Program-made: the position numbers and the translations under genes
DNA from: a virus
Lineage: Duplodnaviria > Heunggongvirae > Uroviricota > Caudoviricetes
Length of the DNA: 35,451 bases
Strand: one strand, 5' to 3'
Virus record (IMG/VR): IMGVR_UViG_2740892422_000002
Coordinates: 1 to 35,451 of that record
Notes under the pieces: model-generated
What the model was told of the DNA's origin: nothing
The model's database searches: none
Seen by the model: only the letters and a program-made list of their open reading frames with translations
In this document: piece by piece, positions 447 to 5,461 of the stretch
Layout of the letters: each line of letters opens with the position of its first letter
How positions within the stretch are numbered: the stretch's first letter is position 1

Positions 447-1022
447 TTAATCACCGACAGTTAACGCTCTCACCTCGTCCAGTATGGACAGCCGGGAAAG
501 CTGCTCCTTCATTTCACGCTGGCGCTGATAAATCTCGTCATTGCGATCGACCTGTGCCTGCGCCATTGCTGTCGCCAGTTCTTCCAGTTCAGACATCGAC
601 AGTTTCACCTGTTGATTATCGGCATCACCCCACGCAAGGGTGGTTCGTGCCGTATCGGATTTCGCCGCCATTACTACCGGATAAAGACGGGCCATTGAGT
701 CGGGGCCAGCATTCCAGGTACGACCGTTCCATTCGAACGTGAACGGCTGCGCTTCCTGTTCTGCACGCCAGGCGTTGATTTGCTGTTTTTTGGCATCTTT
801 TGCCGCTGCGATAAGTTCCGGCGTGACGGTGAACGGGGCGATTTCGCCCCATTTGCCGCTCTGTAACTCTTCCCAGATGCGCTGGCCTGTTGTTGCGGTA
901 TCGTCCTGCATGGCGGTATACGGGACAAATTCCGTTTCACCTTCAAATAGCACCTCGCAGTCAACCGCACCATTTTCGAGATAATGCGCGTATCTGATGC
1001 CCTTTACCGCTCTGATTTTCAT
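447..1022 (-). CDS. tail fiber assembly protein (Tfa-type chaperone) for the long fiber
   Basis: 191-aa ORF immediately downstream of the long tail-fiber gene; size, position and C-terminal region typical of lambda/P2-type fiber assembly chaperones. Confidence 0.65.
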   Translation of the reverse strand: MKIRAVKGIRYAHYLENGAVDCEVLFEGETEFVPYTAMQDDTATTGQRIWEELQSGKWGEIAPFTVTPELIAAAKDAKKQQINAWRAEQEAQPFTFEWNGRTWNAGPDSMARLYPVVMAAKSDTARTTLAWGDADNQQVKLSMSELEELATAMAQAQVDRNDEIYQRQREMKEQLSRLSILDEVRALTVGD

Positions 1023-1036
1023 GTTCTATCTCCTTG

Positions 1037-4000
1037 TTACTCAATGCGCACGAACAAACAGATAAAGCCTCTGTCGCCATACGTTCCACGATAACCTGAC
1101 AGGGCCTGATAACGACCGGGAAAACTGAATGCCCCAGCACCACCCGCCTTTACTGAAGGTGTGGAAACATATGTCCCGGAATTATTAATTGCACAGTCGA
1201 TAGCCACAGGACCAAGTCGCGACCCCGCCACTACATCCCCAAGGCCAATTTTTATTTCCTTATCTCCTGCCGCTGTTCCCTGATAGACCGCGAGAATAAG
1301 AGAGCCAACTGCCGGATATTTGTAATATGAGGACGGGCCGTTGCCCGCCGTCCGGGACAGCAGGAAGGCCAGCGAATCGCCGTCGTAAATGACAGGGCTT
1401 ACTGTTGCATTCCAGTTGTTTCCACTCCAGCGATAAGTCAGGCGATGAATACTGTGCTCACCTTCGTAATACTGGTTAAAACACAGCAGCGTTTTGAATT
1501 TACGCGTTGTGTCCGATTCATCGTTATCAAAGGGCGACCACATCACATCAATGATGCCGTTAAATTTTGTGGTTCCTGCCAGTAGTGTGGAAGAATCCGC
1601 AATACTGACCGCATAACGCCCCGGGGTGACCTCTTTCAGCCACTCAGCAAAATCAGCCTGTCCATCAAATGCCAGTGCATCGGTGCTGGTAAATGCCTGA
1701 CCGAACCCATGCATACCAGACAGTGCCAGCCTGCCCGGTGTACGGTCGCGGATATCGCTCTGGGGTTCCATCGTCGCAGCCGCTTTCAGTTCAAGCTCCG
1801 TGCGCATGGCCTCAGACGTGTCCAGCGCCAGTAATGCGCGGGCTTTTTCTGACAGCTGTGCCAGTAAAACCCGGCCCTCTGCACTGAAATAAGGCAGTGT
1901 GTTTTCTTCCGGTGTTATCTGGCTGACAGCCGTTAACATGTCATTAAGCGGCTGCTTACCTGCCAGTGCATTAGTGACCGTTGTCGCAAAGTTCGGGTCA
2001 TTACCCAGCGCCGCTGCCAGCTCGTTCAGCGTGTCGAGGGCTTCCGGTGATGAGCCAACCAGCGCGGCAAGCAGTTTGCGGACAAACTCCGCATTGGCGA
2101 TTTCATTACCAGCTGCATCATCTGGCGGTGTTGGCGTTGTCGGCGTTCCGGTCAGTGCCGGGCTTTTCAGCGGTGCGCGGGTTTCAATCAGCGCCCGGAG
2201 TGAAGCCTCGTTGACTTTCAGGTTTTCCCAGCCAACCAGATAACCATCTCCGGCATTCCAGTAGCGATTGTAATAAATGTGGCCGTTAATACCGTAAAAA
2301 ATAATGATTTTAGCCACATATGCCGGATTGGGGTTGGTTTGAGGCTCCGGCCAGATAATTTCAACGGTACCATTGAACAGCACGCCCTGTATTACCGCAT
2401 TTGTATCTGCATAAACGGCATAGCGACCGGGTTTTGCCGTTTTTACCCAGCGGAGAAAATCGGTCTCTGTTTTAAACTCGGTTCTGTCGCCGCTGGAAAA
2501 TACTTTCCCGAATCCAAACATGCCGGGAATCGCCAGACGGCCTTCGGTGCGGTCGTAAATATTCTCCTGTGCATCCTTCTGTGCTGCATTGCCAAGTTGT
2601 GGCGTCAGATTCGTCCAGGTGACCGGGGCGGAGATATTATCGCCACGAACGGTCATAAGAATCCGTCCGTCTTTTCCAAAAAACAGAACCAGCTTTGTTG
2701 CTGTCTGGCTGGTTTTGTCGTCCCAGCCATTATCCAGCCAGATAATTTCTGTTATTCCGGTCGTCTCTTCCGTTTGTGTGGAAAAGGTGTAATACCGTCC
2801 CGGGTGCAGGTTATGCGCACTTTTGGCTATGGTCGCCATATCGCGGGCAATAATTGAACTTGCTCCGGCGTCCGTCATTCCGTAACCAAATGCACCTGGT
2901 AGCGCAACACGGCCTTCCGTGCTGTCGTAAAGGTCTGTCTGAATGTCCTTTACCGCCGCGCTTTTCAGCTCAAGCTCCGTGCGCATGGCTTCCACTGTGG
3001 CCTGTGCCAGCAGTGACCGGGCTTTTTCTGACAGCGGAGACAGTGAAGCATTCCCGTCCTGATTAAAGCACAGAAGATTATCTGCCCGTTCTTCCAGATT
3101 ACTGATTGCGGTTAACACGTCACTGAGTGGTTGTTTACCCGCCAGCGCGTTCATGATTGTTGTCGCAAACTCCGGGTCATTGCCCAGCGCCGCTGCCAGC
3201 TCGTTCAGTGTGTCCAGGGCTTCCGGTGACGAGTCAACCAGTGCGGCGAGCAGTTTGCGGACAAATGCCGCGTTCGCGGTTTCCAGACCGACTGCATCGT
3301 CCGGTGGGGTTGGTGTGGTTGGCGTACCCGTGAACGCCGGGCTGTCCAGCGGCGCTTTTGTTTTCGTCTCGTCCATGACGGCTTTGACAGCCTTTGGTGT
3401 GGCGGCCAGTTCTTCGCTGTCGTTGTCTGTATCACTACAGAGTTGCACCAGACCTTTTTGCGTCGTGCTGGCGTTGGTTCCTTTCAGGTCATCGACTATC
3501 CGTTGCGCCTCGTCCCTGTGCTGTTTCGCGTTCTGCTCGCTTTTTGCTGCCGCTTCGGCGCTGGCTTTTGCCTCGCCGGTCAGCGTTGCAGCATCAGCAA
3601 GTTTATCGACCGCTTTCTGGACTATCGCGTCAGCATCCTTGACAGCCTGTTCTGCGCGGGCGGCATTCTGGTTTGTTTCAGAGGCCAGCTCTTCAGCTTT
3701 CTGCACATTACCCGCAATTTCTTCTGCATCCTGCTGTATTTCCCCGGCGAGCGCTTCTGTATCCTGGCGGGCCTGTTCAGCAGCGGTGGCGTGCTCTCCT
3801 GCTTTTTCTGCGCTTTGCTGCGCCTGTTGCGCCAGCTCTTCGAATTTCTTCAGGGCTTCCGGGCGCAGGTCAATATCGGTTGCGCCCAGAAAATCATTCA
3901 GCGAACCGTCTGTCGAATCTTCATAAACGCGAATGACACCGATTTCTGAAAGGCGCTGTGTGCTTTGTGTCAGGCGAACGCTGTACACACCCGGCAGAAC

Positions 4001-4150
4001 GGGGAAGTCGTACTCCCCGCTCTGTGTGGTGACGTGGCTGAAAACACCTTTCAGAATCCCTGCGCGGTTGTGCAGGGAGGTCAGTGTAATGGTTGCGCCG
4101 CCAAGCGGTTCTCCCGTGGGCGTTTTAATCACACCTTTAAGCTGCGGCAT
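1037..4150 (-). CDS. long tail fiber protein (P2 gpH / lambda Stf-like, mosaic, with internal module duplication)
   Basis: 1037-aa ORF; contains twice the conserved fiber motif ...SPA(F/L)TGTPTTPTPPDDA...FVRKLLAALV.SSPEALDTLNELAAALGNDP.FATT..NALAGKQP; N-terminus resembles side-tail-fiber N-domains. Confidence 0.85.
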   Translation of the reverse strand: MPQLKGVIKTPTGEPLGGATITLTSLHNRAGILKGVFSHVTTQSGEYDFPVLPGVYSVRLTQSTQRLSEIGVIRVYEDSTDGSLNDFLGATDIDLRPEALKKFEELAQQAQQSAEKAGEHATAAEQARQDTEALAGEIQQDAEEIAGNVQKAEELASETNQNAARAEQAVKDADAIVQKAVDKLADAATLTGEAKASAEAAAKSEQNAKQHRDEAQRIVDDLKGTNASTTQKGLVQLCSDTDNDSEELAATPKAVKAVMDETKTKAPLDSPAFTGTPTTPTPPDDAVGLETANAAFVRKLLAALVDSSPEALDTLNELAAALGNDPEFATTIMNALAGKQPLSDVLTAISNLEERADNLLCFNQDGNASLSPLSEKARSLLAQATVEAMRTELELKSAAVKDIQTDLYDSTEGRVALPGAFGYGMTDAGASSIIARDMATIAKSAHNLHPGRYYTFSTQTEETTGITEIIWLDNGWDDKTSQTATKLVLFFGKDGRILMTVRGDNISAPVTWTNLTPQLGNAAQKDAQENIYDRTEGRLAIPGMFGFGKVFSSGDRTEFKTETDFLRWVKTAKPGRYAVYADTNAVIQGVLFNGTVEIIWPEPQTNPNPAYVAKIIIFYGINGHIYYNRYWNAGDGYLVGWENLKVNEASLRALIETRAPLKSPALTGTPTTPTPPDDAAGNEIANAEFVRKLLAALVGSSPEALDTLNELAAALGNDPNFATTVTNALAGKQPLNDMLTAVSQITPEENTLPYFSAEGRVLLAQLSEKARALLALDTSEAMRTELELKAAATMEPQSDIRDRTPGRLALSGMHGFGQAFTSTDALAFDGQADFAEWLKEVTPGRYAVSIADSSTLLAGTTKFNGIIDVMWSPFDNDESDTTRKFKTLLCFNQYYEGEHSIHRLTYRWSGNNWNATVSPVIYDGDSLAFLLSRTAGNGPSSYYKYPAVGSLILAVYQGTAAGDKEIKIGLGDVVAGSRLGPVAIDCAINNSGTYVSTPSVKAGGAGAFSFPGRYQALSGYRGTYGDRGFICLFVRIE
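1780..2200. repeat. intragenic direct repeat copy 1 (~0.4 kb, roughly 80-85% identical to 2958..3375 by eye)
   Basis: Near-identical strings, e.g. TTGTCGCAAA.TTCGGGTCATT.CCCAGCGCCGCTGCCAGCTCGTTCAG and CAAGCTCCGTGCGCATGGC, in both copies; boundaries approximate. Confidence 0.7.
2958..3375. repeat. intragenic direct repeat copy 2 (partner of 1780..2200)
   Basis: Same as copy 1; offset about 1.18 kb, inside the long tail-fiber gene. Confidence 0.7.
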
Positions 4151-4667
4151 CGGGACGCTCCGGCCAGTTGATGGAATTAAAGGAGGCTTCGTCAGTAACG
4201 GTGCTTAAATCCAGTGCCTTTACCGCTTTGATATATGCCATCCACTGCGTAAGACGGGCTTTATCATCGTCGCTGATGGTGCCCAGCTCCAGCTCGGTTT
4301 TCCAGTCGGAGGTGATGTCCTTCGCTTCATTCAGCAGGCGCTGACGTTGTTTTTCTGCCAGTTGCGAATAATCAACAGGAACAGGCAGCACTTCGCCATC
4401 TTTGTAATACCAGCTGACTTCAATGCCAAAACCTTCCGGCAGTTCATCCACTTCCACAATGGTGAAGCCAGCCGGATAAAGACGGGACACGTCTTCCGCC
4501 ATTGAATAAATCACGCCGGTTTCCGGGTGAATACACAATTTGTATTTCTTCGTGAATTTATCCAGTGATTCATAAAAATCTTGTCCGTCTTCACTGCGGA
4601 AATACTGAATGTTTTCACCGTAAGGCATTTCTTCCGGGTAATAACGCGTGACGTTTCTGAGTTCCAT
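4137..4667 (-). CDS. tail fiber assembly protein (Tfa-type chaperone) for the upstream 259-aa fiber
   Basis: 176-aa product from ATG at 4667 preceded by TAAGGAG RBS; follows the 259-aa fiber gene. The ORF-track start at 4703 is judged an extension. Confidence 0.65.
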   Translation of the reverse strand: MELRNVTRYYPEEMPYGENIQYFRSEDGQDFYESLDKFTKKYKLCIHPETGVIYSMAEDVSRLYPAGFTIVEVDELPEGFGIEVSWYYKDGEVLPVPVDYSQLAEKQRQRLLNEAKDITSDWKTELELGTISDDDKARLTQWMAYIKAVKALDLSTVTDEASFNSINWPERPDAAA

Positions 4668-4681
4668 TATTTTCTCCTTAA

Positions 4682-5461
4682 TTAACCAGAGATAGTGCGC
4701 CATGCGCCACTAATATAAATTTGCACAGGTTTATACTTGATGAACTCCATTTTTTCGCCGCCATCAACAAAGGTGACCACGCAGCCTGTCGGAGCCTGAT
4801 ATCCACCCTGAACCTGCGCCCCCAACTGAACATTCTGAACGTACCGGGCATCGGCTGTTGACTGACTCATTCCTGCAGGAATCGTGATATCGCTGGTGCC
4901 ATCAAATGGCACATTGTTAATCCTGCGGGCCGTCTGAAGTCGGGTTGCCGTTCCGGCGTTGCCGCTGATGTTGCTGATGGTGATATCCGAAGACAGGGCC
5001 ATGCCGTTGACCCTGCGGGTATTCGGTACAGCACTATTAGCTTTATTTACCGTTTCACGTAATGAAAGTGCTTCGATAATTTCACCGGCTGTGTTTTTCC
5101 CGAGAATACTGCGCACAAAAGCACTGAGCGGCGTTAATGCCATTGTGTCTTCGCCCGTAAAATACGGGAACGTATTATTCTGACCGGTTAATCCGGCAAT
5201 AGCTCCGGCTGAACCACTGTTCGTAATAAACAGTTTTTTCAGCGCCGTCATAATCTGGTTGGTGGTATTTTTATCCGGTTTGATATTTGCCTGCCGGAGA
5301 ATTTCCAGCAGTTCAGACTGAATAATATTAAACCAGTCCGGCCCCGGATAAGTGGGCGGAATACCATTCCCGCCTTCGGTGAAATAAAGCGTTGTTTTGC
5401 TTAATTCAGCCGCGACAGGTGGCATTACCGGCACCCCCGTCGGATTATCCACATGAAACAT
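4682..5461 (-). CDS. tail fiber protein (shorter fiber, S-like position)
   Basis: 259-aa ORF between the baseplate cluster and a Tfa gene; internal segment ...AGLTGQNNTFPYFTGEDTMALTPLSAFVRSIL... resembles tail-fiber shaft motifs. Confidence 0.55.
   Translation of the reverse strand: MFHVDNPTGVPVMPPVAAELSKTTLYFTEGGNGIPPTYPGPDWFNIIQSELLEILRQANIKPDKNTTNQIMTALKKLFITNSGSAGAIAGLTGQNNTFPYFTGEDTMALTPLSAFVRSILGKNTAGEIIEALSLRETVNKANSAVPNTRRVNGMALSSDITISNISGNAGTATRLQTARRINNVPFDGTSDITIPAGMSQSTADARYVQNVQLGAQVQGGYQAPTGCVVTFVDGGEKMEFIKYKPVQIYISGAWRTISG

Follow-up and report, generated by a model that had tools for sequence, protein, structure and literature searches.

A duplicated hinge unit in the lambda Stf-type tail fibre of a Mu-like Escherichia coli prophage and comparative evidence for recombination between its copies

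The DNA considered here, referred to as the window, is the complete 35,451-nucleotide (nt) stretch of the virus record IMGVR_UViG_2740892422_000002 (Caudoviricetes), and its subject is a long tail-fibre gene that carries an internal direct repeat. All window genes lie on the minus strand, and its open reading frames (ORFs) match PHROG families of a Mu-type transposase A, a DNA transposition protein B, a tail sheath, a tape measure and a baseplate wedge; the window is a Mu-like E. coli prophage. The repeat had been pointed out in an earlier reading made by a model from the letters and their ORFs (the sequence-only reading), and its placement inside a long tail-fibre gene is confirmed by the Pfam matches of the 1037-amino-acid (aa) product, to PF08400 at aa 4-130 (expect value, E, 5.2e-26; 91.7 bits against a cutoff of 26.6) and to PF03406 at aa 228-267 (E 2.6e-15), together with its PHROG tail fibre families. 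The fibre is laid out as an anchor, a putative Ala-rich coil, a PF03406 repeat and the series R1-D1-D2-R2-D3-tip, where R1 and R2 are the two repeat copies and D1 to D3 are predicted knob-like domains, and it is followed by a gene for a DUF4376 protein. Read from the N-terminus of the protein, the features of the fibre gene are these:

1037..4150, minus strand: Stf-like accessory tail fibre gene (ORF and translation, 1037 aa, RefSeq WP_032084897.1; Pfam PF08400, PF03406 and PF13620; PHROG tail fibre families)
3761..4150, minus strand: N-terminal anchor domain of the lambda StfN type (aa 1-130; PF08400, E 5e-26; PDB 9e7m and 7kjk)
3476..3880, minus strand: Ala-rich region (aa 91-225), a putative proximal coiled coil (24% Ala; aligns with the coil region of XM1 gp40)
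3350..3469, minus strand: Phage_fiber_2 repeat (aa 228-267), the sole scoring copy (PF03406, E 2.6e-15; also matches residues 99-155 of Mu fibre S)
2959..3355, minus strand: repeat copy R1 (aa 266-397), the N-proximal hinge and distal-coiled-coil unit (self-BLASTN; alignment to Ur-lambda Stf)
3158..3262, minus strand: conserved core of R1 (aa 297-331, ..LLAALVDSSPEALDTLNELAAALGNDPEF..), with 90-92% nt identity to the R2 core; the switch in the strain SC418 allele, described below, falls here
3183..3208, minus strand: longest identical run, copy 1 (26 nt; copy comparison)
2591..2950, minus strand: knob-like domain D1 (aa 401-520; paralogue alignment; AlphaFold2 (AF2) predicted local distance difference test score (pLDDT) 61-77 in the domain core)
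2186..2590, minus strand: knob-like domain D2 (aa 521-655), a third partial repeat
1781..2176, minus strand: repeat copy R2 (aa 659-790), the distal hinge and coiled-coil unit (self-BLASTN; alignment to Ur-lambda Stf)
1979..2083, minus strand: conserved core of R2 (aa 690-724; nt identity and low synonymous difference)
2004..2029, minus strand: longest identical run, copy 2 (26 nt; copy comparison)
1406..1771, minus strand: knob-like domain D3 (aa 794-915; paralogous to D1 and D2, at 29-38% identity)
1040..1405, minus strand: C-terminal tip (aa 916-1037), the presumed receptor-binding part (among the most variable segments in 116 orthologues; 15.6% Gly)

Comparison of the fibre gene with itself by BLASTN yields a single match off the diagonal, in which gene nt 796-1192 pair with 1975-2370 (window 2959-3355 with 1781-2176); identity is 76.4% across 403 columns (E 9e-56). 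This bears out the imperfect direct repeat of about 0.4 kb, self-similarity at these offsets being highly significant. A repeat search gives an ungapped core of 254 nt (1923-2176 against 3102-3355) at 80% identity and a spacing of 1179 nt, and the copies can be aligned over 417 columns with no gaps; because the spacing equals 393 codons and the copy alignment is gapless, the repeat is in frame. With the gene on the minus strand, the N-proximal copy is that at 2958-3375. Likeness between the copies is uneven, with a peak of 90-92% identity in the central ~90 nt and a minimum of 47-62% in unit nt 211-330, and the synonymous difference (pS) is 0.16-0.30 in the core versus 0.6-0.9 in the flanks. 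Long identical runs had been claimed as well, and the run that was quoted, the reverse complement of CTGAACGAGCTGGCAGCGGCGCTGGG, does occur in both copies, being the same as the longest shared run of 26 nt at 3183-3208 and 2004-2029.

The copies are not tandem, since 783 nt of non-repeated coding sequence intervenes between them. The two homologous protein modules of the sequence-only reading therefore stand but their tandem arrangement does not, D1 and D2 separating one copy from the other. At the protein level similarity extends further than at the DNA level, from aa ~245 to ~516 against aa ~641 to ~918 (local score 584, z = 75 versus shuffles), and a third, partial copy at aa ~520-650 consists of the downstream domain only. 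Both copies begin with the motif APLxSPAxTGTPTTPTPPDD, so that the modules do share a common start, but the conserved fibre-repeat motif that was said to open each of them does not do so: PF03406 scores once, just upstream of copy 1. Searched separately, the modules of the fibre protein find no match in Pfam (E<=1) or NCBIfam (E<=0.1).

The nature of the repeat unit is indicated by the Stf fibre of phage lambda. The gpStf protein has been divided (PMC12617516) into StfN (residues 1-91), a linker, a proximal coiled coil (102-393), a hinge (394-422), a distal six-chain coiled coil (423-525) and a receptor-binding domain, and for alignment Ur-lambda Stf (774 aa) was rebuilt from two lambda reading frames. 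Local alignment of fibre aa 215-386 to Ur-lambda Stf 344-515 places R1 residues 265-386 on lambda 394-515; the counterpart of R2 residues 658-775 is Ur-lambda Stf 394-511, and past residue ~515 the comparison with Ur-lambda Stf gives no alignment. Because both copies align to lambda 394-511/515, the 0.4-kb repeat represents a duplicated hinge plus distal-coiled-coil unit, and this unit of ~132 residues is, as judged by these alignments, homologous to the lambda hinge together with the distal back-folded coiled coil (423-525). The repeat core also matches a PDB chain in 9d93 named 'tail collar fibers gp4' (E 3e-9). By analogy with the lambda model each unit is most likely a trimer joint between rigid segments, and a fibre with two units would be longer and have a pair of joints.

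Features in common with Ur-lambda gpStf (PMC12617516) are the PF08400 anchor, the PF03406 motif, the unit of hinge and distal coiled coil with its DTLNELAAALGNDP core and, putatively, an Ala-rich coil. However, Ur-lambda gpStf has one such unit, whereas the fibre described here has two and in addition three knob-like domains, and the lambda/T4 gp37-type receptor-binding C-terminus is not found in it, the ends of the two fibres being unrelated. At the N-terminus the PDB matches are the lambda Stf N-domain 9e7m (E 8e-9) and the 'collar spike' gp40 of Vibrio phage XM1, 7kjk (E 4e-10). On the model of lambda Stf 102-393 (PMC12617516), the Ala-rich region at aa 91-225 is regarded as a putative proximal coiled coil, of ~135 aa versus ~290 aa in lambda.

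The two-copy layout is stable and widespread. It is found, with the whole query covered, in at least 120 clusters (90% identity) of proteins of 957-1047 aa from E. coli, Salmonella and E. marmotae, and at least 80% of the fibre gene is present in 19 complete E. coli genomes. Three enterotoxigenic E. coli (ETEC) genomes have the full-length gene at 99.9-100% identity, and in E. coli ETEC1732 it is 100% identical. A Rac-like prophage of E. coli W carries a 1046-aa version with 90.7% DNA identity from aa 161 on, whose own internal repeat is 76% identical. Among 116 orthologues the mean pairwise identity is 0.65 for the N-terminal anchor and 0.71 for the tip, as against 0.97 for the nearly invariant R1, and the most variable parts are the anchor, part of D2, the distal half of R2 and the tip.

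Comparison among relatives shows that the copies have recombined, both by deletion or insertion and by gene conversion. E. coli W and SC418 carry orthologous Rac-like prophages beside uspF-ompN (chromosomal flank 98.5% identical, phage flanks 91-96%), and the SC418 fibre, 654 aa long, contains one unit only. Between the two genomes there is a difference of 1176 nt, SC418 being the shorter, with two BLAST matches that overlap by 254 nt inside the repeat. At sites that distinguish the copies the SC418 unit is of copy-1 type at 17/19 up to column 141, mixed in columns 147-199 and of copy-2 type at 58/62 from column 203; because copy-1 type gives way to copy-2 type between columns 141 and 203, the SC418 switch lies in the conserved core. 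A different outcome is seen in a Salmonella Mu-like prophage of the same gene order with a 1032-aa orthologue, whose own two copies are 98.5% identical over unit nt 172-302 (~130 nt), including 94 nt of consecutive identity, versus 71-75% in the flanks of the tract. In the window these unit nucleotides are the least similar part of the repeat, and the Salmonella tract compared with the window copies is 79% identical between R1 and R1 and 66% between R2 and R2. The tract appears to result from gene conversion between the copies; literature searches on gene conversion in fibre repeats found nothing specific. Some orthologues likewise have R1-type residues in the R2 core or the reverse, and in one 50%-cluster representative (P0122) R2 is of R1 type along nearly its whole length. 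The expectation that such repeats are substrates for recombination is thus upheld in relatives, by the 1176-nt repeat-bounded insertion or deletion (indel) and by the Salmonella conversion tract. The length variation that was expected along with it is found between genomes (639, 654, 750 and 1037-1047 aa among related prophages) but was not shown within a population.

Other alleles diverge from the window gene elsewhere. The STEC383 allele (639 aa) matches it to aa 424 and then has another knob and tip, STEC346 diverges at aa 542, and STEC1575 and P393-F10 diverge at aa 646 (gene nt 1939 in P393-F10), the STEC1575 allele of 750 aa ending after D2 with another tip; Rac-like alleles differ in the anchor only, upstream of aa ~160. 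These breaks (aa ~160, 424, 542 and 646) fall at module boundaries. In the public annotation the STEC1575 allele is flagged as a pseudogene that is missing its C-terminus, yet it can be read as an uninterrupted ORF of 750 aa carrying another tip, and the P393-F10 allele, which has the same divergence point, is flagged likewise. In E. coli P393-F10 the pair of Stf-type fibre and DUF4376 genes lies at a prophage end beside tRNA-Ser, where the neighbouring genes bear the annotations late control protein and tail protein X, so that the prophage has been read as P2-like. Because this prophage end carries the fibre and DUF4376 pair too, the cassette moves among Mu-like, Rac-like and P2-like prophages.

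The hinge unit extends far beyond this fibre type. When 1.84 billion representative proteins were scanned with R1, 17,441 matched at E<=1e-3, of which 3,931 reached E<=1e-10; among the best 150 matches 127 have between 2 and 11 copies, frequently in head-to-tail arrays that repeat every ~77 or ~130 aa, a proportion that overstates the true multi-copy fraction because ranking by summed score favours multi-copy proteins. The ~80-139-aa hinge/core unit (window 2951-3367 and 1772-2188) is covered by no Pfam or NCBIfam model, and a very abundant fibre module is thus still without a curated family model. With a 141-nt query across the R2 core (window 1960-2100), DNA matches were found in 428 phage records, which include P2 gpH, Fels-2, Gifsy-2 Stf, Klebsiella phages, 286 mycobacteriophages and 26 Gordonia phages. 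K-12 StfR was considered as a well-known two-copy fibre and rejected, the module being wholly absent from it.

Taken together, the locus very probably represents a duplicated hinge unit in the lambda-Stf-type fibre of a Mu-like prophage that recombines on an evolutionary scale. In the mechanism proposed, the core (SSPEALDTLNELAAALGNDP) would supply near-identical DNA amid diverged fibre genes and would be the target of homologous recombination, by which one 393-codon period could be lost or gained in frame, one copy could be converted by the other, or distal cassettes could be swapped at module boundaries. The process envisaged is one of modular shuffling over evolutionary time with no programmed switch, and since no identical run exceeds 26 nt, deletion in a lysogen is expected to be rare. 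Laboratory measurements have been made of recombination between the stf genes of lambda and those of prophages (PMC3945230).

Several observations weigh against this account. The sequences fit either direction of the SC418/W difference: the SC418 allele could be ancestral, with an insertion having produced the two-copy gene. Low synonymous divergence of the core is no proof of recent exchange, since a mycobacteriophage fibre shares 78/93 nt there: gp6 of Mycobacterium phage Alvin is identical to window 1976-2068 at 26/31 aa and at these 78/93 nt, with 18/26 same-residue codons identical. Because of this sharing, behind which motif conservation and GC-rich codon preference probably lie, part of the low-pS signal can be explained by these two causes. 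In addition, the nearest relatives of R1 are in other, mostly single-copy fibres (82-97%) and those of R2 in single-copy fibres (91-96%), with the likeness of R1 to R2, at 72%, ranking 14-18 of 88. The latter observation favours an origin by capture, in which a fibre of the form N-coil-R1-D1-D2-tip' gained the R2-D3-tip cassette of another fibre, and the two copies would be two alleles of a mobile module. The parts required for such an event do occur separately: Mu-like and P2-like prophages have a 750-aa allele that stops directly behind D2 and bears another tip, R-D3-tip stands alone in SC418-type fibres, and D1-D2 with the start of the hinge forms a block in the virulent phage Av-05. However, among diverse fibres the mean likeness of copies is 0.75 within one protein versus 0.53 between proteins and many perfect head-to-tail arrays are seen, and because within-protein copies are more alike and such arrays are frequent, local duplication is evidently common for this module. 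A weak remnant of the PF03406 motif upstream of R2 fits either capture or local duplication. Capture is accordingly a real possibility, judged to fall just short of an even chance, and since it concerns the origin alone it is compatible with later exchange between the copies.

Protein selection by itself might also keep the copies alike, the repeat then being a structural duplication whose DNA similarity is idle in recombination; the core motif is in fact kept at the aa and even the nt level as far as mycobacteriophages, and constraint alone can hold DNA similar. But constraint alone leaves unexplained the sharp-edged Salmonella tract, with 98.5% identity between paralogues against 66-79% between orthologues, and likewise the SC418/W indel, which lies between orthologous prophages and switches in the core, and the probability assigned to this explanation is therefore slim. 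Slimmer still is that of a high-frequency length switch, operating in a lysogen or a phage population and altering host range, despite the fact that a crossover anywhere in the repeat keeps the frame and yields a layout found in nature, and that the fibre cassette occupies the site of the Mu invertible host-range segment. Copies of 76% identity that share no identical run beyond 26 nt are not the long near-identical repeats suited to frequent RecA-dependent deletion; moreover the ETEC gene is full length in all three genomes, the two-copy length is stable across at least 120 clusters, and a tblastn search of the window with Mu Gin found no match to such a site-specific recombinase. An assembly artefact is scarcely credible, given that the copies differ at about a quarter of positions and that independent assemblies agree on the layout, which recurs in at least 120 protein clusters and 19 complete E. 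coli genomes.

As a case of a duplicated hinge unit that recombines over evolutionary time, the fibre is a well documented example of ordinary modular phage-fibre evolution, and the understanding of fibre evolution is unchanged by it. In its main points the sequence-only reading is correct. Its value lies in a residue-level map of natural cut-and-rejoin sites in a common prophage fibre family, namely the SSPEALDTLNELAAALGNDP core, the GRxAxPGxFGxG motif at each knob start and the D2/R2 boundary. These junctions should be usable as splice points for chimeric fibres in phage or packaged-cosmid delivery. A comparable plasticity, now classic, is reported for the distal fibres of T-even phages (Tetart et al. 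1996 and 1998, listed in PMC3157838), where crossovers at conserved motifs within fibre genes exchange portions of the adhesin and the fibre is altered when one of its small domains is duplicated. Neither the motifs nor the folds are those described here, and the T-even case was shown by experiment whereas the present one is comparative only. A tail fibre atlas preprint (10.1101/2024.10.28.620165) describes mobile pseudo-domains, D7 'pyocin knob' and D42, with variable copy number in fibres that have varied N-termini, to which the R and D modules of this fibre are likened by description. Its authors propose that pseudo-domains aid lateral transfer, and their RBP_49 has a carboxypeptidase-like N-terminus that is homologous to XM1 7KJK.

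The three D domains are each of ~125 aa and have the opening motif D-x-T-x-G-R-x-A-x-P/S-G-x-x-G-x-G at aa 413, 537 and 806. An AF2 model of D1-D2 has a mean pLDDT of 65, with 80-91 in the core of D2 and 61-77 in that of D1, and predicts a strand-helix-strands arrangement in both. When this monomer model was submitted to Foldseek the fibre of R1 pyocin was matched at a probability of 0.85, and matches to beta-propeller lectins and nucleoporins were rejected as repeat-beta noise. With moderate confidence the D domains are therefore regarded as knob-like, as in phage and pyocin fibres, the comparison with the R-type pyocin fibre knobs (6cl5, 6cl6, 6cu2) and phage K gp144 (5m9f) being one of a moderate-confidence monomer model at 6-12% sequence identity; a D-domain alignment profile searched against PDB sequences gave chance-level matches only. 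The Gly-rich beta domain expected after each module is not borne out, since the D domains have 8-10% Gly versus 7.9% in the whole protein and are predicted to be mixed alpha/beta; the tip has 15.6%. An AF2 monomer of aa 655-1037 (R2-D3-tip; 55-sequence alignment) has a mean pLDDT of 44.6 and is unusable, and aa 794-1037 are without a Pfam, NCBIfam or PDB sequence match. No family model covers any of the three knob-like domains or the tip. Part of D1 (window 2667-2819) has 87-88% DNA identity to fibre genes of virulent Vequintavirinae and relatives (Av-05, 88%), and in Av-05 gp0078 the D1-D2 block is followed by the start of the hinge; similarity at this level indicates exchange between temperate and virulent phages.

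Two further sets of genes belong to the fibre region:

447..1022, minus strand: DUF4376 gene (191 aa), a candidate fibre assembly partner, downstream of the fibre gene (PF14301, E 2.4e-17)
4137..5461, minus strand: upstream native fibre set, a short Mu S homologue at 4682-5461 (259 aa) and a Mu U-type assembly protein at 4137-4667/4703 (PF02413)

The DUF4376 gene always follows this fibre type in the genomes compared. The N-terminal half of its product is 87-92% identical where the tip is of the same type, versus 67-76% with a different tip, and its C-terminal half shows no co-variation with tip type, a pattern that fits a tip-specific assembly partner. The lambda-type arrangement with a PF02413 Tfa protein downstream is absent here, the downstream partner being DUF4376 (PF14301), and a PF02413 gene is instead found upstream, paired with the short Mu S-like fibre. 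In BLASTP searches this native set has 33% and 37% identity to Mu S and 26% to Mu U. Over window 447-5461 a shortened Mu S/U pair is thus kept, and a lambda-Stf-type fibre with DUF4376 occupies the place where Mu has U'-S'-gin. In ETEC1732 the gene order is baseplate J, gp48-like, short fibre, assembly protein, long fibre, DUF4376, com and mom. The region resembles the Mu G-segment (S/U, S'/U', Gin) in having alternative fibres and the same position between the baseplate genes and com-mom, but unlike the G-segment it has no invertase and no flanking inverted repeats, both fibre sets are co-oriented, and the direct repeat is within one gene. By tblastn no Gin homologue is present in the window, and just two inverted repeats were found in it, both weak and of 20-22 nt. 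Because the window has no Gin homologue, the arrangement is read as a pair of co-oriented fibre sets that takes the place of an invertible switch.

Attachment of the long fibre can be considered on the basis of its N-terminal relatives. Lambda StfN forms a collar around the tail tube, and lambda is a siphovirus with this collar at the tail tip, whereas the carrier here is a Mu-like prophage of contractile-tail type (sheath, baseplate and transposase genes). In the Vibrio myophage XM1 six trimers of gp40 bind the neck. XM1 gp40 (7KJK) has the same N-terminal domain and coil (E 4e-10) and the mycobacteriophage 9D93 structure the same repeat core (E 3e-9), and both of these fibres are located at the neck or collar. 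By its N-terminal homology to XM1 gp40 the fibre may be attached to the contractile tail at the neck and not at the baseplate. A wider proposal, which is speculative and considered rather unlikely, is that this is a second, always co-encoded, two-joint neck or collar fibre by which the Mu G-segment switch is replaced by two fibres at once, that the hinge unit sets reach and flexibility, and that the core serves as a splice site among Mu-like, Rac-like and P2-like prophages and virulent Vequintavirinae.

The ETEC1732 prophage is inserted in flhA, whose annotation gives the N-terminus as missing; the host may lack flagella. Public records have an annotation problem in that the name 'shikimate transporter' is attached to many proteins of this fibre family. 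An antisense ORF of 257 aa on the plus strand (window 3153-3926) overlaps the Ala-rich coil region of the fibre gene; it is probably a by-product of GCN-rich codons and not a gene, and a comparable annotated antisense ORF (orf206b) lies within lambda stf.

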